A stretch of 64,000 bases of DNA, taken from positions 74,807 through 138,806 of the forward strand of contig JAQUUP010000002.1 of the NCBI GenBank assembly GCA_028693815.1. The letters run 5' to 3'. The notes under the pieces were generated by a model. That model was not told the origin of the DNA. It ran no database searches and was given only the letters and a program-made list of their open reading frames with translations. Shown here piece after piece: positions 6,401 through 64,000 of this stretch. The DNA is from Candidatus Omnitrophota bacterium. Lineage in GTDB: Bacteria > Omnitrophota > Gorgyraeia > Zapsychrales > Aceulaceae. Position numbers and translations under genes: made by a program. How positions within the stretch are numbered: the stretch's first letter is position 1; each line of letters starts with the position of its first letter.

Positions 6401-7909
6401 TTGAGCGAGGATGCCTTTAATCTCTCGATTGTGGAAAAAATAGAAATGCCAAAAGTTCTGTATAGTCAGACGGAGGATTATCCGGGAAAAGAAGACTTTT
6501 TTATGATTAACCAATCTGGACCCGATACGTATCTGCCGATCAGAGAAAGCCTCCTTTTGATTAGTCCTCAGCAAGAGACGAGTTCGTCGATATTCTTGAC
6601 AGAAAAAAAGATCAATGCGCTTAGAAAGATTTTATCTAAAGAGGATTACGGCCGCTATGGAAGAATGAAATATTTCGAAGAGAGAATTTTGCCTGATTTA
6701 GAAGATATTTTTTCTGAGGTTTCTTTGTCAAAACCTGTTTTTATGGCTATTGAAAAAAAATTAACTGAACTTGCGAGAAATAATTTTTATCGGTTTGATT
6801 GGTTGATTTATGAATTACGAGAAGAAAGAAACAGATTAAAGAATATTTCTGAAAGCGAAGTTCAAAGTTTAATGGAATTGATTTTGAGCCGGACGCCTGA
6901 TCCTTCTAGCGAAAAAGATTGTTATGGTCCGAAGTATTACGGGGAAGGCCCGAATGATGATTTATATATTTGGTATAGCGGCTCAACTCAAGAGGCTGTT
7001 GATCAACTCAAGAATCTTGAATATTCTTGGAATGGAAAAAGCGTTTTAGAGATTGCGCCTGGACAAGATGGAGAATTTATTAATTGGGTTAAAAGTCAAG
7101 GTGCTGATGCTATGGCATCTGATAAAAGTTTTCGCGGAACACGCTGGGCGCGTCAAAAATATGGTGTTGAGTCAAAAAGAGCGGATATTCTCAATCTTTC
7201 ATTGTTAGGTGATAAAAAGTTTGATGTTATTTTTGCCGCTTCTGTTTTAAATTACGTCCTTGGAGATAATTATTTAGAAAAAGGATCAAAAGAAAAAGCA
7301 GATCAACTTATTAAAAGTTTACGGAGCGTGCTTGCCTCTGGCGGACTTTTATGTTTTGCATTTTCTGATAGAGAAGAAATGGATCAAAGGCGCTATGACA
7401 ATCGTATGCCTAAGCATATTGTTGAGAGTTTTACGCAGGCAGGTTTTGAAATCATTTCGGAGTATAAAGGTGGAGAAGTTATTATTTTGAAGGATATTGG
7501 CTCTGTTGCCGATTCTATGCAGAGTGAAAAGATTTTTTCGCTGACTGCGGATGCTGTGCAGGAAAGGCCTGACGGCCAGTCACAAGCCACAAGTCGTCAG
7601 TTACAAGATACGAATGACGATATGCCAAATGCGAATGACGAACTAAAAGGTGGCATTGATTTTAATGCCCAAAGTTTTGATATTAAAACTCAGGGTGATG
7701 AGATTGATTTTGATGTTCCATTAGAGCTTCAAAATATTGATTTTAATAATATTCAAGGATTTGTGCCGGTGATTATTGATATTGTGCCGATTACAAATAT
7801 ATTTTTTGTTTTAGGATTAAATGAAGAAGATTTTGAGAATGATAAAACCCGTTGGTCTGAGCGCCAGGATATTGATTACGATAAGCCGAAAGAAGAAAGT
7901 TTGATTTAG
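6401..7909 (+). CDS. Class I SAM-dependent methyltransferase-domain protein with an acidic C-terminal tail. Begins with TTG 6 nt after the giant-gene stop; an alternative in-frame ATG lies at 6446.
   Basis: MTase motif I VLEIAPGQDG, post-I acidic residue, motif DVIFAASVLNYV. C-terminus rich in D/E/N. Confidence 0.55.
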   Translation: MSEDAFNLSIVEKIEMPKVLYSQTEDYPGKEDFFMINQSGPDTYLPIRESLLLISPQQETSSSIFLTEKKINALRKILSKEDYGRYGRMKYFEERILPDLEDIFSEVSLSKPVFMAIEKKLTELARNNFYRFDWLIYELREERNRLKNISESEVQSLMELILSRTPDPSSEKDCYGPKYYGEGPNDDLYIWYSGSTQEAVDQLKNLEYSWNGKSVLEIAPGQDGEFINWVKSQGADAMASDKSFRGTRWARQKYGVESKRADILNLSLLGDKKFDVIFAASVLNYVLGDNYLEKGSKEKADQLIKSLRSVLASGGLLCFAFSDREEMDQRRYDNRMPKHIVESFTQAGFEIISEYKGGEVIILKDIGSVADSMQSEKIFSLTADAVQERPDGQSQATSRQLQDTNDDMPNANDELKGGIDFNAQSFDIKTQGDEIDFDVPLELQNIDFNNIQGFVPVIIDIVPITNIFFVLGLNEEDFENDKTRWSERQDIDYDKPKEESLI

Positions 7910-8024: not shown

Positions 8025-8501
8025 ATGAAGATGACAGATCAAGTATTCGGATATCAGCTACTTTTAGATTTGTATGGGTGTAAAGAAGGGGTTTGCGACG
8101 ATCTTTCTTTGTGCTATCAGTTTTTAGATGATATTGTGGGAGCTTTAGGTATGGAAAAACAAGCTCCACCAAATATATTTCGAAGTGATGCTACCCGTTT
8201 TCCAGATAAGGCTGGCCTTTCAGGTTGGGCGCCTTTGATTGAAAGCTCGATTGTGATTCATACCTTGACTCCTAAGAATTATATTTCTGTTGATGTTTAT
8301 TGTTGTAAATCTTTTAGTCGTCAAACGGCAATAGATATGTGTAATAAGTTCTTTGTTCCAAAAAAGATCGATGAGCAGTATATCGAGAGGGGGCTGGATT
8401 ATTTTAAAACAGATACGAATTATCACACGATTACTGTTGATAAGGAGGGTGAATTTCCAAAAGTTGTTATTGAGCGAAAAGATTTAGAGGTAGGGGTTTA
8501 A
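8025..8501 (+). CDS. S-adenosylmethionine decarboxylase proenzyme-like (pyruvoyl-dependent, SpeH/class 1 type).
   Basis: LDLYGC and the self-cleavage-site-like IESSIVIHTLTP resemble the FYEC...SESHLTIHTWPE of small bacterial AdoMetDCs. Size 158 aa. Confidence 0.5.
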   Translation: MKMTDQVFGYQLLLDLYGCKEGVCDDLSLCYQFLDDIVGALGMEKQAPPNIFRSDATRFPDKAGLSGWAPLIESSIVIHTLTPKNYISVDVYCCKSFSRQTAIDMCNKFFVPKKIDEQYIERGLDYFKTDTNYHTITVDKEGEFPKVVIERKDLEVGV

Positions 8502-8521
8502 AAAATTTTTTATTAATAGTT

Positions 8522-8559
8522 GGGGCTTTGTTCTAAGAACAAAGCCCCGTTTGTTTTTT
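8522..8559 (+). terminator. Rho-independent terminator ggggctttgttc-taa-gaacaaagcccc + gtttgtttttt.
   Basis: 12-bp perfect stem followed by a T-tract. Confidence 0.8.
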
Positions 8560-8680
8560 AAAGCAAGAACATGTTAATGCGATTAAATAATTATAACGAA
8601 ACTTTTTGAATGTGATATTATAATGCATTGTTAAAGCTATTAGATTTTAAAAAGGTTCCAATTAATAAAGAGATAACGCG

Positions 8681-9745
8681 ATGACAGAATTATTTGAAAA
8701 ACAATCACAGACCGCTGGTCTTCCTCCCGGCACACTAATCCACGTTGGAGAAAAGCATCACAAAAAAACAAGAATTACAGTTATTGATTATGATTCTCAT
8801 AATTTAGAAGAAAAACAATTAAACTCTATTGAAGAAAGCTTTGCGTTTCGAGATAAACCCAGCATTACCTGGATCAATATTGATGGGCTTGAAGATTTAT
8901 CTGTTATTGAAAAGATTGATGATCATTTTGGTATTCATCCGCTTGTTTTAGAAGATATTGTCAATACGACTCAGCGACCTAAAGTTGATGATTATGAAGA
9001 TTATCTTTTTATTGTTGCTAAGATGATTTATTTTGATGAGAAAAACAAAGACCTTATTGACGAACAAGTTAGTTTTATTTTAGGCTCAAATTCTGTGATT
9101 TCTTTTCAGGAGAAGCAGGGCGATGTTTTTGATTTTATTCGTGAACGACTGCGTGCTAACAAGGGGCGTGTGCGTAAGCTAGGGTCTGATTATTTGGTAT
9201 ATTTGCTTTTAGATGCGTTGGTCGATCATTATTTTCTTGTTCTTGAGAAGCTTGGCGATAAAATAGAATTACTTGAAGATCGCATTTTAGAAAAACCAGA
9301 TGTTCATACTCCGCAAGAGATACACCAGCTCAAAAGAAAAATTATATTCCTGCGTAAGCAAATTTGGCCTATGCGAGAAGTTTTAAGCAATCTTCAGCGC
9401 AAGGATTCAAAGCTGATTAAGAAAACTAGCTTTGTTTATCTGCGAGATGTTTATGATCATACGATTCAGGTTATTGATACAATCGAGTCTTTTCGCGATA
9501 TGCTTTCTGGCCTTCATGATATTTATCTTTCTACGATTAGCAACAAAATGAATGAAATCATGAAAGTTCTTACTATTTTTGCTGCTATTTTTATTCCGCT
9601 TACTTTTATTGCTGGGATTTATGGAATGAATTTTGAATTTATGCCTGAGCTTAAATGGCCATTTGGCTATGCTTACGCGCTGGGTCTTATGCTTGTTGTG
9701 GCGCTTTCATTGTTGACTTATTTTAAACGAAATAAGTGGATTTAG
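8681..9745 (+). CDS. corA: Magnesium/cobalt transporter CorA.
   Basis: C-terminal two TM helices with the GMNFEFMPEL signature (GMN motif); length 354 aa. Confidence 0.9.
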   Translation: MTELFEKQSQTAGLPPGTLIHVGEKHHKKTRITVIDYDSHNLEEKQLNSIEESFAFRDKPSITWINIDGLEDLSVIEKIDDHFGIHPLVLEDIVNTTQRPKVDDYEDYLFIVAKMIYFDEKNKDLIDEQVSFILGSNSVISFQEKQGDVFDFIRERLRANKGRVRKLGSDYLVYLLLDALVDHYFLVLEKLGDKIELLEDRILEKPDVHTPQEIHQLKRKIIFLRKQIWPMREVLSNLQRKDSKLIKKTSFVYLRDVYDHTIQVIDTIESFRDMLSGLHDIYLSTISNKMNEIMKVLTIFAAIFIPLTFIAGIYGMNFEFMPELKWPFGYAYALGLMLVVALSLLTYFKRNKWI

Positions 9746-9811
9746 ACTGAAATTCCTATCCTTCTAATTTTTTCCTTTTAAAATATTAATATTAGTATAA
9801 AATAGATTTCT

Positions 9812-12289
9812 ATGAGTTATGATATTGAGACTATAAGACACCTTGAATCAAAGTGGCAGAAATTTTGGAAAGACAACAAAGTCTTTGAAGTTAAACAAGA
9901 TACAAAAAAACCAAAATATTATGTTCTTGAGATGTTTCCGTATCCATCGGGCAAAATCCATATGGGCCATGTTAGAAACTACACCATTGCTGATGTGATT
10001 GCCCGCATGAAAAAGATGCAAGGCTACAATGTGCTTCATCCAATTGGCTACGATGCTTTTGGTCAACCTGCCGAAAATGCTGCCATAAAACATAAAACTG
10101 ACCCTTCCAAATGGACCTATCGTTGCATTCATGAAATGCATCAAGGTTTTGAAAAGATGGGATTTTCTTACGATTGGTCGCGTGAACTTGCTACTTGTAA
10201 TCAGGATTATTATAAATGGAATCAGTGGATTTTTCTAAAGATGATGGAAAAAGGTCTTGCCTACAAAAAGGCTTCATCCGTCAATTGGTGCCCAAGTTGC
10301 GAGACAACCTTGGCTAATGAAGAGGTTATTCAGGGGCAGTGTTGGCGATGCAAGTCAGAAGTTACACAAAAAGATTTAAATCAGTGGTATTTAAAAATTA
10401 CAGATTATTCTGAAAGGCTTTTAAAGGATCTTGATACGCTAAAACAATGGCCAGAGCGTGTTGTTGCCATGCAAAAGAATTGGATTGGCAAAAGCTATGG
10501 TGTTGAGATTTATTTTAAGGTTGAAAAGACAAATGAGGTTTTGCCCGTTTTTACCACGCGTCAAGATACGATTTTTGGTGCAACGTATGTTGTTTTAGCG
10601 CCTGAGCATCCGCTTGTTTCTAAGCTTATTAAAGGGATGCCACAAGAAAAAGAAGTTTTAGCGTTTTGTGAAAAAATAGCAAAGGTGAGTAAAACGGATC
10701 GCATTTCTGGCGGCCTTAAAAAAGAAGGAATTTTTACAGGGATCTATGCGATTAATCCTGTGAATAATGAAAAGGTTCCAATTTGGATTGCGGATTATGT
10801 TTTAATGGAATACGGAACTGGTGCGATTATGGCTGTGCCGACGCATGACCAGAGAGATTTTTTGTTTGCTAAAGAACATGATTTGCCAATGCGTATTGTT
10901 ATTGAAGATCCGAAGCGAAAAGGTATTTTAGCCGATGAGCTGACTGAGGCGTACGAAGCCGAAGGTGTTTTGGTGAATTCTGAGCAATTCAATGGTATTA
11001 GCAATGTCGTGAGTTTAAAGAAAATTTCAGATTGGATGCAAGAAGAGAAAATTGGAAAGTCTGTTGTGCATTGGCGTTTGCGTGATTGGTTGATTTCTCG
11101 TCAGCGATATTGGGGCACACCGATTCCTGTTGTCTATTGCGAGAGCTGTGGTGTTGTGCCTGTGCCTGAAAAAGATCTTCCCGTTGTACTTCCTGAAGAT
11201 ATTAAAATTACAGGTGAAGGAGGAAGTCCTTTGGCTAAGAGGGATGATTTTGTAAATGTTAAGTGTCCTAAGTGTGGCAAGCCGGCTCAGCGTGAAACAG
11301 ATACCATGGCTACATTTTTTGATTCGTCTTGGTACTATCTTCGTTATTGTTCAGCGCATGATGAAAATCAAGTTTTTGATAAAAATGACGCTGATTACTG
11401 GATGCCAGTTGATCAATACATTGGTGGCATTGAGCATGCGATTTTACATCTTTTGTATTCACGGTTTTTTACTAAATTCTTTAAAGATTTAGGTCTGGTA
11501 AAATTTGATGAACCTTTTACGCGTCTTCTAACACAAGGTATGGTTTTAAAAGATGGCGAGGTGATGTCTAAGTCTAAAGGAAACACGGTTGATCCTGATT
11601 CGGTGATTGAGAAATATGGAACAGATGCGTTAAGGCTTTCGATTTTATTTGCTGCTCCGCCGGAAGATCAATTGGAATGGAATGATGGCGCGATGGAAGG
11701 ATCTTGGCGATTTTTGTCTCGTATCTGGAATTTAGTAGAAACAAAGTACGATTCGGTTGCAAAAGAGCAAGCGTTTAATGATAGCGATAAAGATTTAGAA
11801 CGAGAACGTAATAGTGTGATTAAGAAATTTACTGAAGACATTGAAAAAGGTTTTAAATTTAATACATCAATTAGCAGCATCATGATTTTACTTAATAAAA
11901 TTGATCAGCACGTTAAGGGTAAAAAAGGGGCGGATGTTGTTCAGCCTGCTGTTTTAAACAAGTCTATCGAAACAGTTGTTTTGTTATTATCTCCGATTAC
12001 GCCGCATTTGTGTGAAGAGCTTTGGAATAAAATTGGCAAGAAAGATAAAACGATTAGTGAGATTGATTGGCCGACACATGATGAAAAAGCGCTTATTGTC
12101 GACGAAGTTTTGGTTGTTGCTCAGGTTAATGGTAAGTTGCGAGGAAAATTTCAAGTGCCTGTGGATGCTGATGAGGCAACCTTGAGAGACATTATTTTAT
12201 CTGATGAAAAAATCAAAGAGTTTATCGCTGATAAGCCGATTAAGCGTTTTATTGTTGTTCCAAATAAAATTGTAAATATTGTAGTATAA
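9812..12289 (+). CDS. leuS: Leucine--tRNA ligase.
   Basis: HMGH ([15 protein letters not shown]) and KMSKS (VMSKSKGN) class I motifs; CP1 editing domain and Zn-finger Cys pairs; 825 aa. Confidence 0.97.
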
Positions 12290-12324
12290 AAGTTACAAGC
12301 GTCTTGTTACGCGTGACCTTAGTT

Positions 12325-13614
12325 ATGTCAAAATTCTACGCTGACCTTCATATTCATTCTAAATATTCCCGTGCAACCAGCAAATCATTAGACTTTGAGG
12401 CTCTCTATCTTTGGGCGCAACTAAAAGGCCTCCAGGTTGTTGGCAGCGGAGATTTCTTGCATCCGGCGTGGTTTAAGGAAATCACAACAAAACTTGAAGA
12501 AGCTGAGCCAGGGTTTTTTAAATTAAAAGAAAAGTATGCCAAAGAAATTGATAAAGACGTTCCAAAGTCTTGTCGAGGCAAGGTGCGGTTTGTTCTTTCA
12601 GTTGAAATCTCAAGCATTTATAAAAAAATGGATAAGGTGCGAAAAATCCACAACGTGGTTCTTGCGCCTCATTTAAAATCTGCAGAAAAGATTCAAAAGA
12701 AGCTTGGGGCCATTGGAAATATTTGTTCAGATGGCCGTCCGATTCTGGGTTTAGATTCGCGCGATTTGTTAGAAATAACTTTGGAAGCTGACGACAAGGC
12801 TTTTTTAGTTCCAGCGCACATTTGGACGCCGTGGTTTGCGCTGTTAGGTTCTAAAAGTGGATTTGATCGAGTTGAAGATTGTTTTGGTGATTTGACTAAG
12901 CATGTTTTTGCTCTTGAGACAGGTTTGTCGTCTGATCCTTTGATGAATTGGCGGTTAAGCCGGCTGGATGATTATGTTTTGATTTCTAATTCAGATGCGC
13001 ATTCGGCATCAAAGCTTGCGCGCGAGTCGAATATTTTTGATACAGAATTTTCTTATAATGGGATGTATAAAGCGCTTAAAGATCCAAAAGACAAAGGATT
13101 TTTAGGGACGATTGAATTTTTTCCGGAAGAAGGGAAATATCATTATGACGGACATCGGGATTGCAAGATATGTTTAACACCTAAAAAGACTATAAAAAAT
13201 AAAGGATTATGTCCTGTTTGCGGAAAATCTGTGACAGTCGGTGTTATGGCGCGGGTTGAAGAACTTGCCGACCGGAAACAAGGAGAAAAAAGCAAGCGAT
13301 GGCGCCCTTATCATAGTTTGATTCCGCTTGTCGAGGTTGTTGCTGAGGCTAGAGGCATGGGGCCAAATTCAAAAGCTGTTCAGAAAATCTTTCATGCGAT
13401 GCTTAATGCTCTTGGCGGAGAAATTTCGATTTTGTGGGATAAACCAATTAAAGATATTCAAGTTTGTGCTGGTGATGTGGTTGCTGAAGGTGTCAGCCGT
13501 ATGCGTCAAGGAAAAGTAAATATTGCACCCGGCTATGATGGAGAATATGGTGTTGTTAAGCTTTTCTCTGATGCTGAGAGAGCTAAGTTAGCCAAACAAC
13601 CATCTTTGTTCTAA
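12325..13614 (+). CDS. PHP-domain nuclease with a C-terminal Zn finger, endonuclease Q (EndoQ)-like. Start moved to the ATG at 12325.
   Basis: N-terminal ADLHIHSKYSRA PHP signature; C-terminal CPVCGKSVTVGVMARVEEL zinc ribbon; about 430 aa, as for archaeal and bacterial EndoQ. Confidence 0.45.
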   Translation: MSKFYADLHIHSKYSRATSKSLDFEALYLWAQLKGLQVVGSGDFLHPAWFKEITTKLEEAEPGFFKLKEKYAKEIDKDVPKSCRGKVRFVLSVEISSIYKKMDKVRKIHNVVLAPHLKSAEKIQKKLGAIGNICSDGRPILGLDSRDLLEITLEADDKAFLVPAHIWTPWFALLGSKSGFDRVEDCFGDLTKHVFALETGLSSDPLMNWRLSRLDDYVLISNSDAHSASKLARESNIFDTEFSYNGMYKALKDPKDKGFLGTIEFFPEEGKYHYDGHRDCKICLTPKKTIKNKGLCPVCGKSVTVGVMARVEELADRKQGEKSKRWRPYHSLIPLVEVVAEARGMGPNSKAVQKIFHAMLNALGGEISILWDKPIKDIQVCAGDVVAEGVSRMRQGKVNIAPGYDGEYGVVKLFSDAERAKLAKQPSLF

Positions 13615-13655
13615 TTTTATTCTTGTTTGATAAGATTTAATTGATCAGGTAGCGT

Positions 13656-13994
13656 ATGTTTCATCTAACAAAAGAAGAGCGACTTGTTGTTATTTATTTT
13701 GGGGCGACCCTTATTTTGGGGAGCCTTTTTTATTATGTGTTTAAGCAAAATCCAAACCTTTGGAATTTGATTAATGTGGTCGATAGCCAGAAAATTTATC
13801 CAAAGGTAGATATTAATCGAGCCGACCGCGATCAGTTGATCAAGATTCCGCAAATTGGCCCTGCCACAGCTGATCAGATTTTGGAGCATCGCAAAAACAA
13901 GACATTTGAAACGTTAGAAGAGCTTAAAGAAATAAAAGGTATCAGCGGTTCAAAGTATAAAACTATTATTCGGTATTTAAAACCACCGCCCTGA
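13656..13994 (+). CDS. comEA: Competence protein ComEA (helix-hairpin-helix DNA-binding).
   Basis: N-terminal TM, DINRADRDQLIKIPQIGPATADQIL...LKEIKGISGSKYKTI tandem HhH. Confidence 0.8.
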   Translation: MFHLTKEERLVVIYFGATLILGSLFYYVFKQNPNLWNLINVVDSQKIYPKVDINRADRDQLIKIPQIGPATADQILEHRKNKTFETLEELKEIKGISGSKYKTIIRYLKPPP

Positions 13995-13996
13995 CT

Positions 13997-15556
13997 ATGA
14001 ACCCTCGTCGACCATTCTTAAGTATGGTTATTTTCCTCAGTTTCGGTATTCTTGTCGGAGAATACATAAATATTTCATTTTATATTCTAAGCTTCTTTTG
14101 TTTGATTGGATTTTCTTTAAGTTATATTTTTCTTAAACAAACAAAAGTTTCGCTTATTTTTATTTTTGCTTCATTGTTTTTGCTTGGAGCAGCACTTGTT
14201 CAAAGTGCAAAAAGCATTGGACCCGACGACATTTCAAGTATTGTTCGATTTTATCGAAAAGATTCTGTGACGATTGAGGGTATTGTTGTTTCTGATGTTC
14301 AAGAAAAAGATTTTCATGCGACAAAAAAACTTTCATTTGAGCTTGATGTTAAACGTATCAAAAGTCCTTGGGGCTGGAAAAAGAAAAGCGGAAGAATTTT
14401 AGTCCATGTGTTCGGAGAAAGAGACATTGCTTTTGGTGATTATCTTAAAATGGAAGGAAAGATTTATCCAGCATTTAATTTTAAGACAGAGAATCGATTT
14501 TCATACAAAGAATATCTTCTGAGAAAGAAGATTCGGTGTATTTTAAGTGTAAAGAAAGCGTTGCCGGTTGATGTGATCAGAAGAAATCAAGGCAATTTTT
14601 TAAAAGCATTTTCTCTTCGCTTGAAGAAGAAGTTGTCGGGTATCTTGGATGCGAACTTTACATCGAATCAATCTGGTATTATGCACGCGATTCTTTTGGG
14701 GGATCGTCAGAATATTCCTGTACATATCCGCGAGCTTTTTATTCAGACAGGAACAGCGCATATTTTAGCGATTAGCGGTCTTCATATTGGTATTGTGGCT
14801 TTCTTGATTTTTCTTGCACTTAAAATTATTCCTTTAAAAAGAAAATGGCGATATATTTTAACAGCGGCTTTTCTTATTTTTTATTGCTTTTTGATTGGGT
14901 CTCGGCCATCAGTTGTGCGAGCAACAATTATGGCGAGTATTTTTTTGTTTAGTTTTGTTTCTGAGAGGGAATCGGATCCTATCAATGCACTGTGCTTAGC
15001 GGGTTTTGCGATATTGATTATGAATCCTCTTTATTTGTTTGATGCTGGATTTCAGTTATCTTTTGTGAGTGTTTTTTCGATTTTATGCTTGTATCCGGTT
15101 TTTTCAAAGAGTTCATGGATGTTAGAGAAATTGAGCAAGCGAAGGGTGGCAAAGTTTTTTGTTGAGTCACTGTTTGTTTCCTTAATTGTTTGGATAGGGG
15201 TTTTCGGGCTCGTTGGATATTATTTCGAAATCGTTACGCCTATTACGATTTTGGCTAATTTATTTGTAATTCCGTGTATTTCTGTTGTTATTGCTCTGGG
15301 CTTAAGTTTAATGTTTACAGGGGTTTTTGTCCCAGGTTTAAATATTTTCTTTGCGTATTGCATCAAAGTTGTTTTAAGCGTAATGGTGGCAGGCATTTAT
15401 CTTATGTCACAAATCCCGGGAGCTTATTTTGAACACTTTTCTTTTTCGTTTGGCGTGGTTGTAGCGTATTATATGGTATTTTTTGGACTTTGTTTCTTTA
15501 GAATTTTAAGAGAAAATAAGCATCCTCGCAAGATTGACAAAATTATTCAACTATGA
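13997..15556 (+). CDS. comEC: ComEC/Rec2-family DNA internalisation channel. Carries the DUF4131 and competence domains but no C-terminal MBL domain.
   Basis: Polytopic membrane protein with the AHILAISGLHIGIV motif typical of ComEC. Confidence 0.85.
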   Translation: MNPRRPFLSMVIFLSFGILVGEYINISFYILSFFCLIGFSLSYIFLKQTKVSLIFIFASLFLLGAALVQSAKSIGPDDISSIVRFYRKDSVTIEGIVVSDVQEKDFHATKKLSFELDVKRIKSPWGWKKKSGRILVHVFGERDIAFGDYLKMEGKIYPAFNFKTENRFSYKEYLLRKKIRCILSVKKALPVDVIRRNQGNFLKAFSLRLKKKLSGILDANFTSNQSGIMHAILLGDRQNIPVHIRELFIQTGTAHILAISGLHIGIVAFLIFLALKIIPLKRKWRYILTAAFLIFYCFLIGSRPSVVRATIMASIFLFSFVSERESDPINALCLAGFAILIMNPLYLFDAGFQLSFVSVFSILCLYPVFSKSSWMLEKLSKRRVAKFFVESLFVSLIVWIGVFGLVGYYFEIVTPITILANLFVIPCISVVIALGLSLMFTGVFVPGLNIFFAYCIKVVLSVMVAGIYLMSQIPGAYFEHFSFSFGVVVAYYMVFFGLCFFRILRENKHPRKIDKIIQL

Positions 15557-15569
15557 TAAAGTGGACGAC

Positions 15570-16517
15570 ATGAAAAGAATAATAATTATAACTATTACTA
15601 TTATTAGTATTTGTGCTGGAAATTGTTCTGCTTTTTGGCTTTGGACGCCAGAGACGAATAAATGGGTTAATCCAAAATATTCCGTTAAAGAAACCCCAAA
15701 AGAACAGCTAGATTACGGCTTAGAATTTCTAAATGCACAGGAATTTAAGAAGGCCATTAATGAATTTGAGAAGCTGATTAAACATTATCCGCGGGCAACG
15801 GAAGCACCAAAAGCACAATGGTATATTGGTGAATGTTTTGAAAAGTTAGATGATCCTTATAAGGCATTCCAAGAGTATCAGAAGATTATTGATATGTATC
15901 CTTTTAGTGATCTCGCTCCTGAAGTTGTTGAGCGTCAATACAAGATCGGTGAGAAAATGCTTTTGACTCCATCCAAAAATCGATTTATTTCTACTTTGAC
16001 TGGCGGGGAATACGATGTGATTGATGTTTTTCGAACGGTTATTAAAAATGCGCCATATGGCAATTATGCGCCTATTGCGCAATATAAGATTGGTTTATAT
16101 TTGGCTGAAAAAAAGATGTATTCTGAAGCACGTGATGAGCTTGAGAAGGTGATTAACGATTATCCAGATAATGAATGGGTTAAGCCTGCTCGATATCAGA
16201 TTGCTGTTGTTGATTCTGCGCGATCGCCAGGCGCTGCTTATGATCAAAGAGTGACGCAAGCGGCAGCTGAAGGATTTGAAGATTTTATTAAAACATATCC
16301 AGATGCTCAATTGTCTGAGAAAGCTCGTTCTGAAATTTCCGAGTTGCGCGAGAAAGAAGCCGAAAATAATTTTTTGACGGCTAAATTTTATCAAAAACAA
16401 AAAGATTATGAAGCTGCAAAGATCTATTATTTGTCAATTATTGACGAGTTTTCCGGAAATCAGTGGGCGATTAAGGCTTTAGAACAAATTAAAATTATTG
16501 AAGAAAAGACTAAATAG
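15570..16517 (+). CDS. bamD: Outer membrane protein assembly factor BamD-like TPR lipoprotein.
   Basis: Signal peptide then TPR repeats (YPRATEAPKAQWYIGECF...YAPIAQYKIGLYL...). Size and architecture match BamD/YfiO. Confidence 0.6.
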   Translation: MKRIIIITITIISICAGNCSAFWLWTPETNKWVNPKYSVKETPKEQLDYGLEFLNAQEFKKAINEFEKLIKHYPRATEAPKAQWYIGECFEKLDDPYKAFQEYQKIIDMYPFSDLAPEVVERQYKIGEKMLLTPSKNRFISTLTGGEYDVIDVFRTVIKNAPYGNYAPIAQYKIGLYLAEKKMYSEARDELEKVINDYPDNEWVKPARYQIAVVDSARSPGAAYDQRVTQAAAEGFEDFIKTYPDAQLSEKARSEISELREKEAENNFLTAKFYQKQKDYEAAKIYYLSIIDEFSGNQWAIKALEQIKIIEEKTK

Positions 16518-30520: not shown

Positions 30521-31522
30521 ATGGAAAATTTAATTATTTGGTTAAAGTTTTCTATGAGTGCAGGGCTTGTCATTTTTTCTGGGATCAAGCTAACAAAATG
30601 TGCTGACATCCTAAGTGATCGGTTTTCTATTAATAAAGCTTGGATGGGGATGATTCTTTTGGGAGCGATTACCTCACTTCCAGAGGCAACGGCAAGTATT
30701 GCATCAGCGGCAGTGATTCGTGCGCCAAACCTAGCGATTGGGAATATTGCTGGTAGTGTTAATTTTAACTTAATGATTGTTGTTTTGATGGATTTTATGT
30801 ATCATAGGGGTTCTGTTACTGGACAAATTCAAGTAAAACGAACATATGAATGGTCTGCGGTATTTTATGGAATTCTTTCTTCTATTGTTGTTATTGAAAT
30901 ATTCTTATCACCAAAGACAAATTTAATTACGTTTGGTCCAGTAAGCTTGGGAAGTATTTTGATTGTGATTTTTTATTTTCTAGGATCAAAATTTATTTTT
31001 AAGAAAAAAGTTAAAGACACCGACTCTCGTATTAAGCACGTAGTAAGCGTTCAAGACAAGATATTGATTTTTAAAATGGTTGCTGGAGCGTTAGTTGTTA
31101 TTTTTAGCGGTATTTGGCTTTCGGGCATATGTGATCAAATTTCTAGCATTACAGGGTTGGGTCAGACTTTTGTAGGAACAACATTTTTAGGTTTTGTGAC
31201 ATCGTTGCCTGAGATTGTGGTTTCTCTTTCAGCTTTAAGAATGGGCGCATTTGATTTGGCGTTTGGTAATATTTTTGGCAGCAATATGGTTAATCTTCTG
31301 ATTTTAGCAGTATCTGATTTATTTTATATTAAAGGTCCCATTTTTGCCGACGTGTCTCAAACGCATATTTTAATGATGACGTTAAGCGTTGTTTTGACAA
31401 CGATTTTAATTGTTGGGATTCGAAAGGGCGTAAAAAAGACATTTTTTGGATTTGGGTTTGATACAATATTAATGATGATTTGTTTTGCAGTTGGCATGAA
31501 ATTTTTGTATGATTTGAGATAA
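30521..31522 (+). CDS. Na+/Ca2+ (cation/Ca2+) exchanger CaCA family (YrbG-like).
   Basis: Two alpha-repeats: GNIAGSVNFNLMIV and GNIFGSNMVNLLIL; 10 TM. Confidence 0.8.
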   Translation: MENLIIWLKFSMSAGLVIFSGIKLTKCADILSDRFSINKAWMGMILLGAITSLPEATASIASAAVIRAPNLAIGNIAGSVNFNLMIVVLMDFMYHRGSVTGQIQVKRTYEWSAVFYGILSSIVVIEIFLSPKTNLITFGPVSLGSILIVIFYFLGSKFIFKKKVKDTDSRIKHVVSVQDKILIFKMVAGALVVIFSGIWLSGICDQISSITGLGQTFVGTTFLGFVTSLPEIVVSLSALRMGAFDLAFGNIFGSNMVNLLILAVSDLFYIKGPIFADVSQTHILMMTLSVVLTTILIVGIRKGVKKTFFGFGFDTILMMICFAVGMKFLYDLR

Positions 31523-39000: not shown

Positions 39001-40263
39001 ATGATTGAGAATTTTAAAAATAAAAACTTTCTTTTTCTTTGGTTAGGACAAATCATTTCTCAGTTTGGAGATCGGATTAACCAAATGGCCTTGATTGGTC
39101 TTGTTGCTGGACGCATGCCTGGATCAACATTTGAGTTGGCGAAGTTGTTGTCCTTTACAATTATCCCTGTTTTTGTGGTTGGTCCAATTGCTGGCGTTTA
39201 TGTTGATCGATGGGACAGGCGTACAACGCTTTTTGTTTGTGATTTTGTTCGAGGACTTCTTGTCTTAACGATTCCAACTATTCTTATTTTTCAGAGTTCA
39301 ATGGTTCCTATTTATTTTGTTGTTTTTCTCATTTTTTGTTTAAGCCGTTTTTATGTTCCAGCTAAGATGTCAATTGTTCCTGATTTGGTTGCTAAAAAAA
39401 CATTATTGTCTGCTAATTCGCTTGTTTCGATTACAGGCATGATTGCTTTTGTCTTAGGGTGTGCGTTTGGTGGATATTTAGTCGAGAAAACAGGAGCAAG
39501 AGGGGGTTTCTTTTGGGATGCGGCAACATTTTTTACATCGGGCACTCTCGTTTTTCTCATTAATACAAAAATGAATATTCATCTTGATCGAAGAAAAATT
39601 ATTGATACGTCTAAAGAAATGATTAGCAAGATTAAAAAATCTGTTTTTGCTGATATTAAAGAAGGTTTTGTCTATCTTGTTAATCATAAAGAAATTCGTT
39701 TTGTGGTTAATATGATGTTTATTCTGATGGCAGCAGCTGGTGCGGTTTATGTGGTCATTATTGTTTTTGTTCAAGAGGCTTTTCAGAGTATTACTAAAGA
39801 TCTTGGGTTTTTGGCGGTTATTTTAGGTGTTGGATTATTTTGTGGATCAGTTTTGTATGGGCGATTTGGGAAAAAGTTTTCGCGTTTTAAGGTCATTTTT
39901 ACGTGTTTGATTCTTGGTGGCTTAATGATGACGGTTTTTGCTCTGGTTGTTCAAAAAATTCCTGTATTGTTTCTTGGCTCTGCTTTAGCTTTTTTGCTTG
40001 GATTAATTGTTGGCCCAATCTTTATTGCCTCGAATACTATTGTTCATGACTTAAGTAAGGATGAGATGAGAGGGAGGGTGTTTAGTTCACTCGAGTTTGT
40101 TATGCATTTAGGATTTTTGTTAGCTATGTTCATAAGTTCTTGGCTGTCTGACAAGATGAACGTTGCCAATTATAAAATTTTAATGGGGGTTGGCATTATC
40201 TTTTCTTTAGTCGGGGTTATTAGCTTAATATATTATAATCGTAATAAGAGTAGGATTGCATAA
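39001..40263 (+). CDS. MFS transporter (efflux type).
   Basis: FLFLWLGQIISQFGDRINQMAL...12 TM; 420 aa. Confidence 0.8.
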   Translation: MIENFKNKNFLFLWLGQIISQFGDRINQMALIGLVAGRMPGSTFELAKLLSFTIIPVFVVGPIAGVYVDRWDRRTTLFVCDFVRGLLVLTIPTILIFQSSMVPIYFVVFLIFCLSRFYVPAKMSIVPDLVAKKTLLSANSLVSITGMIAFVLGCAFGGYLVEKTGARGGFFWDAATFFTSGTLVFLINTKMNIHLDRRKIIDTSKEMISKIKKSVFADIKEGFVYLVNHKEIRFVVNMMFILMAAAGAVYVVIIVFVQEAFQSITKDLGFLAVILGVGLFCGSVLYGRFGKKFSRFKVIFTCLILGGLMMTVFALVVQKIPVLFLGSALAFLLGLIVGPIFIASNTIVHDLSKDEMRGRVFSSLEFVMHLGFLLAMFISSWLSDKMNVANYKILMGVGIIFSLVGVISLIYYNRNKSRIA

Positions 40264-40280
40264 GGAGGCGTAAAATTAGT

Positions 40281-59455: not shown

Positions 59456-60760
<1,305 letters not shown>

Positions 60761-60860: not shown

Positions 60861-61124
60861 ATGTTCAAAAACGCCATTTTATTATTTATTTTCGCTCTTT
60901 CGATACTTGTTATTTTTTTGCCATCTTACCAAAAGATGCAAGAGCTGAAAAATAGAAATTTGCAGTATCAAGGACAGATTGAAGATTTGGAAGAAAAAAA
61001 GGCTCGTTTGACCGAAGAGCTTAGACGCCTTAATGATGATCCAGAGTATTTAGAAAAAGTGGGTCGAGAAGAAATGGGTCTTATTCGTAAAGGCGAAACA
61101 GTTTATAGAGTTGTGCCAGAATAA
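60861..61124 (+). CDS. ftsB: Septum formation initiator FtsB/DivIC-family protein.
   Basis: N-terminal TM, coiled coil, C-terminal GREEMGLIRKGETVYRV. Conserved position downstream of eno. Confidence 0.6.
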   Translation: MFKNAILLFIFALSILVIFLPSYQKMQELKNRNLQYQGQIEDLEEKKARLTEELRRLNDDPEYLEKVGREEMGLIRKGETVYRVVPE

Positions 61125-61394
61125 AATTAGTATCTAGCATTCTGTATTTAGTGTATAGTATTTAAATGAAGTCAAAATTTATAGAGTGTAAATGATATAA
61201 ATTTTATAACTGAATTCATCTCGTGCCTGAAGGATGTCGAGGTCGAATAAAATTGTTCTTTATAAAAATTTGGTGGATAAAGGAGAAGTGCGTTGGGCTA
61301 ATTTTCGAATTTTCGAGAAAATTGTCTAAGCGTTTTCCTTAATATTCCATCGAGAAGAAACGCGGGGTAGAGCAGCCCGGTAGCTCGTCAGGCT

Positions 61395-62028
61395 CAATAA
61401 TGGATACAAAGCTCAAATCAGACATTGCAGAATCTGCGGTTATTTTGAAGCTCCTCGAAAAAGGGTTTAATGTTCTAAAGCCTTTTGGTGATCGTCTTGC
61501 CTATGATCTTGCTATAGATCAAGAAGGACGATTAATTCGCATTCAAGTTAAAAGTGCATGGTATAGCAAAGATAAGAAAATGCATTTAGTGGATGCAAGG
61601 AGAACAAAAACAAACCGACGCAAAATGATTCGAAAGAAATATTCGAATCAAGATTTTGATTTTGCAATAATCTATCTTAGCGATAAGCAGGTTTTTTATA
61701 TTATGCCTGTAGAGGTTTTTAATAACTATGCTAGTAGCATTAGTTTTGTCGAGGAAGGTAAGCGGCAACGACCTCCAAAGTCAGCTAAATTTAGAGAGAG
61801 ATGGGATTTGTTGTCCTTTTGTGGGCTGCTAGTCCAGTAATGGATTAGTGAAACCTGTCAAATTCGGTGAAACCTTAACTGGCAATACCGAGCCAAGCCT
61901 AGCAGGAATGCTAGGAAGGTGTAGAGACTAGATGGCAGGCATCCTAACTCATCGAGAAGGATGAAGGTATAGTCCAGACCACAAACCTTGACCTAATGTT
62001 AGGGGCGGCGAAAGCCGTAGTTGGCAAG
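61395..62028 (+). mobile_element. Group I self-splicing intron (IC3-like) in the anticodon loop of tRNA-fMet, carrying an ORF.
   Basis: 3' part 61853..62028 contains GUCAAAUUCGGUGAAACCUUAA, CCGAGCCAAGC and GAAGGUGUAGAGACUAGAUGGCAGGCAUCCUAA, near-identical to the core P3-P7 strings of the Azoarcus tRNA-Ile and Anabaena tRNA-Leu introns. Ends in G; upstream exon ends in U. Confidence 0.85.
61400..61840 (+). CDS. Intron-encoded ORF of 146 aa, a putative PD-(D/E)xK homing endonuclease (I-Ssp6803I-like).
   Basis: YDLAID ... RIQVKS nuclease-like motifs. Same host gene as the PD-(D/E)xK homing endonuclease of the cyanobacterial tRNA-fMet intron. Starts 5 nt inside the intron. Confidence 0.55.
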   Translation: MDTKLKSDIAESAVILKLLEKGFNVLKPFGDRLAYDLAIDQEGRLIRIQVKSAWYSKDKKMHLVDARRTKTNRRKMIRKKYSNQDFDFAIIYLSDKQVFYIMPVEVFNNYASSISFVEEGKRQRPPKSAKFRERWDLLSFCGLLVQ

Positions 62029-62075
62029 CATAACCTGAAGGTCGCTGGTTCAAATCCAGTCCCCGCAACCATGTC

Positions 62076-62108
62076 AAAAAGGGTCACCCAAAAGGGTGAC
62101 CCTTTTTG
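62076..62108. terminator. Bidirectional intrinsic terminator aaaaa-gggtcaccc-aaaa-gggtgaccc-ttttt.
   Basis: Perfect 9-bp stem flanked by an A-run and a T-run. Confidence 0.8.
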
Positions 62109-62204
62109 TACATAATTGAGGATGATTTGAACCTCGGCGACCGACACTGTGCCAATAGGCACAGAGAGGAAGTGCCGGGCCAATAGGGCCGGCTTCAAAT
62201 CCAG

Positions 62205-62327
62205 AATAAGTTAGAATAAGTTAAATAAGTTAGACCGTTTCTACTTAATAAGTTAGACCGTTTCTACTTTACCCCTAGCCTTATATTAATAAGTTAGACC
62301 GTTTCTACTTTACCCCTAGCCTTATAT
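62205..62327 (+). repeat. Iteron-like direct repeats. AATAAGTTAG x3 at about 10-nt period, then three copies of AATAAGTTAGACCGTTTCTACTT, the last two extended to a 41-nt unit (...TACCCCTAGCCTTATAT).
   Basis: Copies at 62205, 62215, 62224; 62224..62246, 62247..62287, 62288..62327. Confidence 0.8.
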
Positions 62328-62353
62328 AAACTTACATTAGAAGTGTCCTGTTA

Positions 62354-62382
62354 TTGACACATTCTTTTTCCTCATCTAAAAT
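62354..62382 (+). promoter_or_regulatory. Sigma70 promoter TTGACA-17-TAAAAT placing the TSS at or near the ATG at 62389, so a probable leaderless mRNA. No SD present.
   Basis: Hexamers and spacing read directly. Sequence between the -10 and the ATG is aTACCTCC, which is anti-SD-like. Confidence 0.5.
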
Positions 62383-62388
62383 ACCTCC

Positions 62389-63387
62389 ATGCCCAAGACG
62401 CAAATAATACCTCAAACCTACAAAACCCTCCTAACCCATTTACAAAAACAGCTTAAAATTTCCCAGAATAGTTTCGAGCGACAATTGGTCATTACTTATT
62501 GGAATATCGGCAAAGGCATTGATGTTTATCTAAAAAAGAATCCTCAAAATTATCTCACCGCGCTTACGTGTAAGCTTTCCAAAGATTTGAATATTCACCA
62601 GCGTACTCTTCAGCAGTGCCATCAACTTTTTAGTGTGTTTCCATCGCTTGATTTTAAAATACCGATTAGCTGGTCGCATTACAGGGCTTTGTTGTCTTTA
62701 GACTCTGATAAAAAAAGAGCGTACTGGCAAAAGCGCATTGTTAAAGAAGATATTAATTTTAAAGAATTGCTCGGATTTTTAAAACAAGATAAGCTTGATT
62801 CCAAAACACCTAAAGGCAAATTGGCAAAACCTGTGCGAGGAGTTTTGTATCATTATCGGCTAATGAAAGTCAGCTATGTGGATAAGAGAAAAGCCAGCAT
62901 TGTTGTTGATTGCGGATTTGAGAATCGCATTGTCCCGCCCAAGCATGATGGGCTGCTTGAGAACAAGCGCATTATTGTTTCTTTTAAGGAAAATGATTAC
63001 TACAGGATAAAATACACCAAAGATGTTTTAAAAGATAATCTTTATACTTTTAAGGCGCATGTTGAAAGAGTTGTTGACGGCGATACGCTTGTGTGCAATG
63101 TGGATTGCGGATTTGGGATCTGGTCAAGACAGAAGCTTCGCCTAAAAGGCATCGATGCGCCGGAAATGGATACTGTTATGGGCGTGAAAGCAAAAAGCTT
63201 TGTCGAAGATGTTTTAAGGAATTGTGTTTTTATTATTGTCAAAACATCGAAGTCAGATAAATACGATCGTTATCTCGCGGATATATTTTTTAAGGAAGGC
63301 GAGAGCGATGCAGGCGCTGTAGCAAAGGATGGCGAGTATTTAAATCAGCTCTTGATGGATAAGGGTTTGGCAGAAATTTATAGGTGA
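62389..63387 (+). CDS. Fusion nuclease: DUF1016 (YhcG-type) N-terminal domain plus a duplicated staphylococcal-nuclease (SNase/thermonuclease)-like C-terminal domain.
   Basis: N-terminal QLVITYWNIGKGI (the DUF1016 LVxxYWxIGxxI pattern); C-terminal VVDGDTLVCNVDCGFGIWSRQKLRLKGIDAPE ... DRYLADIF (the SNase DGDT...R...GIDAPE pattern). Confidence 0.55.
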   Translation: MPKTQIIPQTYKTLLTHLQKQLKISQNSFERQLVITYWNIGKGIDVYLKKNPQNYLTALTCKLSKDLNIHQRTLQQCHQLFSVFPSLDFKIPISWSHYRALLSLDSDKKRAYWQKRIVKEDINFKELLGFLKQDKLDSKTPKGKLAKPVRGVLYHYRLMKVSYVDKRKASIVVDCGFENRIVPPKHDGLLENKRIIVSFKENDYYRIKYTKDVLKDNLYTFKAHVERVVDGDTLVCNVDCGFGIWSRQKLRLKGIDAPEMDTVMGVKAKSFVEDVLRNCVFIIVKTSKSDKYDRYLADIFFKEGESDAGAVAKDGEYLNQLLMDKGLAEIYR

Positions 63388-63468
63388 TTTCTTGGGTTTT
63401 TGGCAGAATAAAGAATAAATTTTGTAGAAAAGAAAGGGACAGCCCCTAAAAAGGGACAGAGAGGTAGT

Positions 63469-63536
63469 AGTGGTGTCCCCAAACGGGGACTGTCCCCTTT
63501 TTCGTGGTGTCCCCAAACGGGGACTGTCCCCTTTTT
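63469..63536. terminator. Tandemly duplicated 34-nt intrinsic terminator (gtggtgtccccaaacggggactgtcccctttttc x2).
   Basis: Stem ggggac/gtcccc plus T-run, present as an exact duplicate. Confidence 0.65.
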
Positions 63537-63676
63537 CTTTTTCTTTTTTTCTTTTCCTGCTGACGTTTCTGCGAGATTCCGTGCTCATTGGAGATCGCTA
63601 CCCATGCCATTTTTTAATTCTAAAAGATTTTCTCAAAGTTTTTTGCTATGCTAAAATGTTGAAAAAGGAGAAGGTG

Positions 63677-64000
63677 ATGAAAAAACTGTATTTGTTGTTA
63701 TTTGCGTGTATTTTTATAATTGGCTGTGCGACAAATATGCCTATTGAAAATTATCTATCCGTTAAGAATATTAAGAAGTTCTTAGAAGAGGACATAAAAA
63801 TTAATGAAAGCACAGACGAGGATGTGCGGAAACTATTTGGGGACCCGCAGATTATATCTCGATATGAAGCTTCAAGCGTCGAGAGTGAATTGTCAAAGCT
63901 TCCTTTGCTTGACCAGTTAACAAAGACATTAAAAACTAATGTTGCCCCAGCAACAACTTGGACTTATATTGAGCCGCTTCATGAAAAAAGCGTTCAGGCA
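63677..64000 (+). CDS. Lipoprotein, hypothetical (5' partial; continues beyond the window).
   Basis: Signal peptide with lipobox IIGC. No stop before the window end. Confidence 0.5.
   Translation, partial: MKKLYLLLFACIFIIGCATNMPIENYLSVKNIKKFLEEDIKINESTDEDVRKLFGDPQIISRYEASSVESELSKLPLLDQLTKTLKTNVAPATTWTYIEPLHEKSVQA

Follow-up and report, generated by a model that had tools for sequence, protein, structure and literature searches.

The window analyzed here, a 64-kb stretch of DNA (64,000 nucleotides) from a Candidatus Omnitrophota metagenome-assembled genome (MAG), carries near its end a gene for a predicted nuclease, and it is this gene, its promoter and the repeat array in front of it that we consider. 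The encoded protein joins an N-terminal domain of the YhcG/DUF1016 type to a staphylococcal-nuclease (SNase) domain. The family to which it belongs is an uncharacterized YhcG-type module with an SNase effector, and our literature search found no paper on a DUF1016_N-SNase protein. The principal features of the locus are as follows.

62389 to 63387, plus strand: nuclease coding sequence of 332 codons (NCBI MDD3374350.1, 'thermonuclease family protein', Candidatus Omnitrophota MAG).
62389 to 62829, plus strand: residues 1-147, helical DUF1016_N domain with a predicted ParB/KorB/Spo0J-type helix-turn-helix (HTH) fold and a conserved WSHYR motif.
62830 to 63030, plus strand: residues 148-214, small beta domain that repeats the N-terminal half of the SNase barrel in truncated form (internal duplication).
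63031 to 63387, plus strand: residues 215-332 and the stop codon, complete staphylococcal-nuclease (thermonuclease) domain.
62354 to 62382, plus strand: sigma-70-type promoter, with -35 TTGACA at 62354-62359, a 17-nt spacer and -10 TAAAAT at 62377-62382.
62203 to 62327, plus strand: nested array of perfect direct repeats, with units of about 10 nt, 23 nt and 41 nt.

Both halves of the protein are recognized by profile searches. Pfam DUF1016_N (PF17761) covers residues 26-129 (E 2.3e-9; 37.9 bits against a cut-off of 32.8), and Pfam SNase covers residues 249-331 above its gathering score (E 5.2e-8). The N-terminal domain also matches the PADLOC PDC-S02 models (best 2e-14). An AlphaFold model based on 30 homologues has a mean pLDDT of 90.7, and residues 215-332 form the SNase OB-barrel fold. 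No PD-(D/E)xK domain was matched in Pfam at E ≤ 1. These matches and folds bear out a preliminary description of this DNA, which had proposed a YhcG/DUF1016-type N terminus with SNase in place of the PD-(D/E)xK nuclease. No ParBc domain was matched in Pfam either, and there is no ParA-like neighbor here or at related loci.

The catalytic residues of SNase, on which the nuclease assignment depends, are all present on alignment. In a profile alignment to SNase chains, the segments VVDGDT, LRLKGIDAPE and DKYDRYLADIF of the window protein align with IDGDT, RLLLVDTPE and DKYGRGLAYIY, so that D230, D232, R251, D256, E259 and R294 are equivalent to D19, D21, R35, D40, E43 and R87 of SNase. In the latter enzyme, D21 and D40 are Ca2+ ligands, R35, E43 and R87 are catalytic, and T41 binds via its backbone. 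Among 30 homologues the active-site positions are invariant or at least 90% conserved. The SNase domain had also been described as duplicated, and there is indeed an internal duplication: residues 148-214, for which beta strands are predicted, match the first half of the SNase domain with an hhalign probability of 96% (E 6e-9), and a DNA-level repeat (D10) connects the two copies. However, residues 148-214 lack the DGDT and R..D.PE catalytic motifs, which leaves one full catalytic copy (215-332) and one truncated, non-catalytic half-copy (148-214). Because the protein has no hydrophobic N terminus or signal peptide, it is expected to be cytoplasmic.

The family is large. A hidden Markov model scan of 1.84 billion cluster representatives returned 1,117 representatives of 50%-identity clusters at E ≤ 1e-30, and the best 150 of these 1,117 cover essentially the full profile, at lengths of 287-395 aa. 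A word-indexed search gave 230 homologues; nearly all of those listed are about 290-390 aa long and carry DUF1016_N, SNase or both in precomputed Pfam annotation. In a scan of GTDB with a single genome for each species, at least 380 places were confirmed. The carriers are mostly Omnitrophota, with many hits labeled 'uncultured Planctomycetales', and they also include Latescibacterota, Margulisbacteria, Elusimicrobiota, Leptospiraceae (among them the isolate Leptospira fluminis SCS5) and some Gammaproteobacteria MAGs. Two to four divergent paralogues occur together in at least 14 of the genomes represented by the top 80 loci, and two Gammaproteobacteria MAGs hold four each. Full-length members are also found in 24 Leptospira plasmid records. 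On the L. weilii plasmid pD13 (L092, NZ_CP040845.1) there are three near-identical 332-aa copies, at 22153-23151, 30523-31521 and 39274-40272, about 8.5 kb apart, each followed at a distance of some 420 nt by an RHS-repeat core toxin gene that has small ORFs (open reading frames) after it.

The two halves of the protein differ in their conservation. The DNA-binding half evolves faster than the nuclease half, with mean pairwise identities of 29% in the N-terminal domain, 29% in the middle domain and 52% in SNase. At the DNA level, the family gene is also less conserved than its neighbors in two pairs of related MAGs, with 84.5% identity against 93-94% in L018/L029 and 73-83% against 88% in L062/L080. 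In these same two pairs, indels of 1.4-3.3 kb lie just downstream of the family gene. Many family genes lie 70-600 nt from where their contig stops, even when the contig is 20-160 kb long, with the end on the 5' side in L040, L041, L029, L014, L057, L053, L060, L007, L067 and L080 and on the 3' side in L003, L012 and L081; the distance is 69 nt in L040, on a contig of 139 kb, and 107 nt in L041, on one of 162 kb. Assemblies seem to break beside the family gene, possibly through paralogous copies or adjacent repeats.

The promoter of the window gene matches the sigma-70 consensus at 11 of 12 positions and is the best match in the region. As had been reported for the TTGACA-17-TAAAAT element, no Shine-Dalgarno (SD) motif precedes the ATG. 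The -10 hexamer ends 6 nt before the ATG at 62389, and the predicted transcription start is probably the A of this ATG, which would make the mRNA leaderless. A longer ORF is ruled out by an in-frame TAA within the -10 hexamer, and homologues begin at the same 'MP' as the window protein.

This leaderless interpretation, first suggested from the window by itself, gains strong comparative support from the family. In the four closest homologues (L082, L001, L083 and L084, with 75, 67, 63 and 63% identity), 6-7 nt separate the end of a TTGACA/TTGACC-17-TAnAAT promoter from the start codon. We defined the leaderless signature as a -10 hexamer with at least 5/6 matches that ends 6-7 nt before the start codon. 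It was found in 22/83 family genes versus 6/649 other ORFs of the same loci (odds ratio 39, Fisher p = 2e-17), and the distance is exactly 6 nt in 20 of the 22. None of these 22 genes has an SD-like motif, versus 24 of the 61 other family genes. Members with the signature occur in Omnitrophota, Gammaproteobacteria and Margulisbacteria, and the nuclease gene is its sole bearer among the 54 genes of the window. These comparisons indicate that the leaderless layout is a family trait recurring across several phyla. A promoter layout of this kind that extends through a family is unusual, and it lends itself to testing as a 'plug-and-play' way of expressing genes that move horizontally. A search with a degenerate promoter pattern recovered the L082 organism alone.

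Two smaller features of the promoter region should be mentioned. The anti-SD-like CCTCC noted in the preliminary description is present between the -10 hexamer and the ATG. However, the pyrimidine-rich ACCTCC stretch is not kept in the four closest homologues, relatives having GTTTTC, ATTTGC and ATCTCT(T), and we therefore regard the resemblance as incidental. In two orthologues a perfect palindrome of 9-11 bp, ATATATTGCAC-N5-GTGCAATATAT, spans the -35 to -10 region of the leaderless promoter and looks operator-like (L008 830-856, L011 5963-5985), though the family as a whole shows no enrichment of such palindromes.

No gene accompanies the family members consistently. When 558 neighboring ORFs from 80 loci were clustered, no family occurred at more than five loci and none at a fixed position, and the 144 immediate neighbors represent 171 Pfam families with at most three members each. 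The four closest homologues lie in four unrelated contexts, with such neighbors as glyoxalase, DinB/UvdE, a spermine-synthase-like gene and an outer-membrane efflux gene. When paralogues and close orthologues are compared, their DNA is similar from about 40-90 nt before the start codon to 2-80 nt past the stop. Family-wide, no terminal repeats, direct or inverted, surround the gene (median z ~0.2). Among candidates for transposon-like ends, the strong cases were REP-like (repetitive extragenic palindrome) repeats in L035 or, in our judgment, a simple-sequence run (L037, 7-nt repeat), and they were rejected. A conserved partner gene was likewise rejected as a candidate. The family is stand-alone, multi-copy and context-free.

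These surroundings bear on two other explanations of the gene. It had been described as a possible addiction cassette, in which a nuclease toxin would be checked by a neighboring antitoxin or antisense RNA. A non-specific nuclease domain behind a strong promoter would suit such a role, and leaderless mRNAs are known for some stress-linked genes. However, no small partner ORF lies on either side of the window gene, no neighbor recurs in the 80 loci, and Rfam gave no family above its gathering score in 62100-64000; we therefore consider a toxin module extremely unlikely and do not retain the addiction cassette.

The second explanation is a housekeeping nuclease for DNA repair or recombination, whose DNA-binding domain would recruit SNase to damaged or structured DNA and which would be neither a conflict gene nor a mobile one. 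In its favor, the catalytic core is strongly conserved, and repair genes do occur beside family members: a DinB-type polymerase and UvdE in L083, MutS in L073, and LexA twice and PIF1 helicase twice among the 144 immediate neighbors. A housekeeping gene would not be expected to lack conserved synteny altogether, to vary between one and four copies with divergent paralogues, to be patchy across phyla with members on Leptospira plasmids beside RHS toxins, or to have its closest homologues in unrelated contexts, and we judge this explanation quite improbable.

The site at which the window gene lies has a history of its own. Its features, from the upstream genes to the terminators of the nuclease gene, are listed here.

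59489 to 60760: enolase gene (upstream context).
60861 to 61124: FtsB/DivIC gene (upstream context).
61361 to 62071, plus strand: tRNA-fMet gene split by a group I intron (Rfam Intron_gpI, 70.9 bits), with 5' exon 61361-61394, intron 61395-62028 (634 nt), and 3' exon with encoded CCA 62029-62071.
61400 to 61840: ORF within the intron for an I-Ssp6803I-type PD-(D/E)XK homing endonuclease (Pfam PDDEXK_5 9e-44; PADLOC HEase 3e-49).
62075 to 62108, no strand assigned: bidirectional intrinsic terminator hairpin past the tRNA, a perfect 15-bp stem between an A run and a T run.
62147 to 62164 and 62174 to 62193, plus strand: two G+C-rich terminator-like hairpins with AATA loops, read from the sequence.
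62194 to 62204, plus strand: TTCAAATCCAG, second exact copy of the T-loop segment of the tRNA-fMet gene (62049-62059).
63435 to 63537, plus strand: terminator region of the nuclease gene, a hairpin at 63435-63447 followed by a 34-nt tandem duplication.
63470 to 63503 and 63504 to 63537: perfect tandem copies of the 34-nt terminator unit GTGGTGTCCCCAAACGGGGACTGTCCCCTTTTTC, each with a GGGGAC-T-GTCCCC hairpin and then a T run.

The intron interrupts the anticodon loop of the tRNA, and its exon borders were inferred via the U/omega-G rule; ARAGORN did not call the split tRNA-fMet. The exons match tRNA-fMet genes without an intron in two relatives (L085 and L086), and the intron and its endonuclease were therefore gained recently in the Omnitrophota lineage of the window. 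Upstream of the tRNA 3' end the window is conserved. From 52 kb to 62,071 it is collinear with the contigs of its nearest relatives, which were found via FtsB (L085, 84% identity; L086, 70%; L088/L089, 67%), and collinearity with all four stops exactly at the tRNA 3' end (62071). Past this point L085 has a lipoprotein gene, L088 and L089 have PqiA, and L086 has an integrase island. Different DNA follows the tRNA in each relative, which marks the 3' flank of tRNA-fMet as a hot spot of integration and variation; the nuclease gene is absent from the same site in the relatives and so is not ancestral there. Linkage to the tRNA belongs to this site and not to the gene family: a tRNA lies within a few hundred nt at only 1/60 related loci scanned, and on this basis we rejected linkage of the family to tRNA genes.

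The preliminary description had also proposed a small integrated element. The non-ancestral position of the gene beside a tRNA agrees with this proposal, but neither an integrase nor a clear attachment (att) site is found before the window end. In a broader version, the gene would be cargo near one margin of a larger tRNA-fMet island, with an integrase and a far att site past the window end, and the repeats and the T-loop fragment would be scars of successive integrations. The exact end of synteny at the tRNA is consistent with this idea, as is the island of L086 at the same tRNA-fMet without intron (8360-16261), which encodes an unknown protein of 345 aa, an excisionase-like HTH_17 protein, a tyrosine integrase, AbiEi/AbiEii, RadC and type I HsdR; the L086 stretch examined shows no far att repeat of this island. 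The second copy of the 11-nt T-loop segment TTCAAATCCAG lies 145 nt downstream of the first and directly abuts the first repeat unit of the array, and all repeat units have one fixed left boundary. These are the only two copies of TTCAAATCCAG in the 64 kb, against 0.08 expected by chance, and the downstream one may be an att-type recombination remnant. However, it is not followed by a tRNA 3' end, as a classical attR would be, and no integrase is encoded in the 1.9 kb that separate the tRNA from the window end (64000). Elsewhere family members are neither tRNA-linked nor beside integrases, and the cassette, which has its own promoter and terminators, recurs alone. We regard the island explanation as possible, though unlikely.

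Two further observations concern the flanks of the gene. A direct repeat in the hairpin region (62154-62173 versus 63449-63468, 17/20 positions matching) was considered as a pair of cassette ends and rejected, because we judged it to reflect a likeness of terminator-like modules. The 34-nt terminator duplication, like the upstream array, is local and perfectly identical. The next gene, at 63677, encodes a lipoprotein without annotatable function, and the window stops about 600 nt past the nuclease gene.

The array of 10-mers, 23-nt and 41-nt direct repeats that had been reported in front of the gene is present. Three units of about 10 nt (AGAATAAGTT) give a 10-nt period across 62203-62234, a 23-nt unit, AATAAGTTAGACCGTTTCTACTT, lies at 62224-62246 and occurs in three copies overall, and two perfect 41-nt units occupy 62245-62285 and 62286-62326. 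The layout can be written as A, A, A-B, A-B-C, A-B-C, with one left boundary common to all units. Within the array AATAAGTTAGA is found at 62205, 62224, 62247 and 62288, with a copy containing one mismatch at 62215. The 15-mer AGACCGTTTCTACTT occurs three times in the array and nowhere else in the 64 kb, and three matches were reached in 0/100 shuffles. No single-strand structure is apparent in the array (z = -0.49), there is no further copy of the array unit in the window, and JGI metagenome contigs gave 0 matches.

The repeats had been described as possible iterons or a regulator-binding array. The specific form of this proposal is that they serve as functional iterons or as an operator for the ParB/KorB-type HTH of the gene's own product, which would autoregulate its strong promoter or nucleate on the DNA as ParB or KorB does. 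Several aspects of the array are compatible with binding. The five copies of the core AAGTTAGA start at relative positions 0, 10, 19, 42 and 83, in roughly helical phase, and the 23-nt unit reads as AAGTTAGA-CCGTT-TCTACTTT, an imperfect inverted repeat in which 6/8 arm positions match. The N-terminal fold matches domains that bind palindromic operators, and a near-consensus promoter before a nuclease gene might suggest a need for repression. Phased direct repeats are also found just upstream of the gene at a few other loci, including L043 (11 nt x 3) and L073 (23 nt x 2.2).

The comparative evidence argues against such a function. The array is absent upstream of the four closest homologues. 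In a test for upstream tandem repeats (TRF, period ≥ 9, score ≥ 40, within 200 nt, with genes that have intergenic upstream DNA as controls), 6/80 family genes and 25/314 controls were positive (p = 1), and iterons as a family trait were rejected on this comparison. Palindromes in the promoter regions of the family are not enriched either, with a mean best arm of 5.7 nt versus 5.8 nt in controls (p = 0.81). The most similar array, in L027 (22 nt x 5.6), derives from a REP-like palindrome, which is found beside other genes too. The helical phasing corresponds to an estimated chance expectation of about 5%, and the copies of the array are 100% identical, which fits recent duplication. Several direct repeats in helical phase, one mark of iterons, are thus seen, but association with a Rep gene and conservation at homologous loci are not: 60.0-64.0 kb contains no Rep-type protein. 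We consider a binding array improbable and do not uphold the iteron proposal. The array looks like a recent, local, nested tandem duplication in a recombination-prone variable spacer that starts at the tRNA-fMet 3' end. From these comparisons it is apparently not a conserved cis-element of the family, and by itself it seems unimportant.

Repeats beside other family genes have their own origins. The Gammaproteobacteria MAGs with four paralogues have REP-like palindromes beside the gene, GGTGGGCAATGCCCACCCTAC and CTGGATACCGGC..GCCGGTATGACG (L027 3617-3737; L035 ~5720-5930 and 7120-7180), and in L027 part of the palindrome has been amplified into the tandem array (22 nt x 5.6) that immediately precedes the promoter. 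The array unit of the window also resembles a sequence in the closest homologue: TATATTAATAAGTTAGACCGTTTCTACTTTAC (62281-62313) matches L082 2785-2817 at 26/33 positions, and this L082 segment comprises the last codons, stop and 3' flank of the gene. The likeness is borderline, with a score of 29 versus a best of 28 in 500 shuffles.

With moderate confidence, we favor the interpretation that the window gene encodes a stand-alone, horizontally mobile, DNA-directed and Ca2+-dependent nuclease in a leaderless cassette, in front of which the array is a mere local duplication. In this model the fast-diverging HTH half would position the protein on DNA, and the conserved SNase half would cut that DNA once Ca2+ becomes available. 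Dependence on Ca2+ would keep the enzyme latent in the cytoplasm. With its own near-consensus promoter and its own terminators, the gene would form a self-contained cassette, and a leaderless start would permit expression after transfer to hosts with different ribosome-binding habits.

A role in genome conflict, either defense against foreign DNA or selfish maintenance, is likely for such a protein. The homology of its N-terminal domain to YhcG/DUF1016 (PDC-S02) and the fast divergence of its targeting half point in this direction, as do the known locations of DUF1016 genes: they are overrepresented next to type I restriction-modification and BREX loci (PMC9881135) and are also found on mobile elements and within variable regions (PMC4316617, PMC9881135).

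A number of observations weigh against this interpretation. In the Leptospira pD13 copies a W replaces the D40 Ca2+ ligand, so not every member need be a nuclease, and the leaderless signature is seen in just a quarter to a third or so of family members. Recognizable defense or mobile-element genes, namely ORF6N/PDC-S05 (three times), Cas3 (two to three times), AbiEi (twice) and ResIII (three times), make up about 7% of immediate neighbors, which is weak for a defense-island gene, and the DNA-repair neighbors described above (L083, L073, LexA) would fit a repair role too. Phage records and IMG/VR contigs contain no full-length member and only the SNase domain alone, at about 40% identity, a result on which a phage origin of the full-length protein was also rejected. 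The approximate helical phase of the AAGTTAGA copies and the imperfect 23-nt palindrome make binding by the HTH domain conceivable. Finally, no immunity or methyltransferase partner is found; as a conjecture, low cytoplasmic Ca2+ may be what spares the host's own DNA.

A more far-reaching possibility is that the family constitutes a new autonomous, selfish or homing-type class, an SNase-based, HTH-targeted endonuclease in a minimal, host-independent leaderless cassette that would reach new intergenic sites through the breaks it makes and their repair by the host, with the repeats as repair scars left by recurrent cutting and insertion at the window site. The scar reading draws on the fixed left boundary of the array, the adjoining T-loop fragment and the 26/33 likeness to the 3' end of the L082 gene. 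As for the hallmark of a free-standing homing gene, no empty-site pair was found, the closest relatives lie in different contexts, and there are no terminal repeats. We hold this class to be very improbable. The nuclease cassette as we interpret it is open to experiment, since members occur in culturable Leptospira, including plasmid copies beside RHS toxins, and the gene family with its leaderless hallmark is a worthwhile experimental lead.

Comparison with known systems helps to delimit the family. The HTH fold is common to ParB/Spo0J, KorB and SopB, but the window protein has no N-terminal CTPase/ParB-box, no ParA partner and no ParB/KorB-type dimerization domain, and no parS-like site was identified. 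A different protein of the same name, ParB of the RP4/RK2 par multimer-resolution region, is an SNase homologue that is intracellular, Ca2+-dependent and encoded on a mobile replicon. RP4 ParB has no DUF1016_N/HTH and works in the parCBA operon with a resolvase; partners of the resolvase/parCBA type are absent beside the window gene. FokI and I-TevI follow the same logic as the window protein, with a separable DNA-binding module tethered to a nuclease module, and free-standing homing endonuclease genes likewise stand alone between unrelated genes with their own promoter and terminator. However, the folds of FokI and I-TevI are different, and no methyltransferase partner, target site, presence/absence polymorphism with defined ends or terminal repeats were found here. 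The likeness to FokI and I-TevI is one of logic only, not of membership.

The two halves of the protein have closer counterparts. Classical SNase or thermonuclease (PF00565) is a secreted, single-domain enzyme, whereas the window protein has no signal peptide and carries an HTH domain and a degenerate half-duplicate in addition. Lack of a signal peptide and the added HTH lead us to expect action inside the cell on bound DNA. A phage-encoded SNase-like 'endonuclease' family, PHROG 452, also matches the window protein (5e-29). YhcG/DUF1016 proteins (PF17761 plus PF06250 YhcG_C; PDC-S02) share the homologous N-terminal domain, including the WSHYR motif, and are likewise single-gene modules of about 330-350 aa for DNA binding and nuclease action, patchy in distribution and found on mobile elements or in variable regions. 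Their PD-(D/E)xK nuclease is replaced here by a half-SNase plus a full SNase, which differ from it in fold, metal and chemistry. YhcG itself is experimentally uncharacterized and offers no mechanism to borrow. Because PD-(D/E)xK is absent, the window protein is not a member of YhcG but a domain-swapped relative only. If our interpretation is correct, a large family (>1,100 clusters at 50% identity) couples the YhcG/DUF1016 DNA-binding module to a Ca2+-dependent SNase effector, which would provide a concrete case of nuclease-domain swapping and suggest a possible Ca2+-gated intracellular nuclease.

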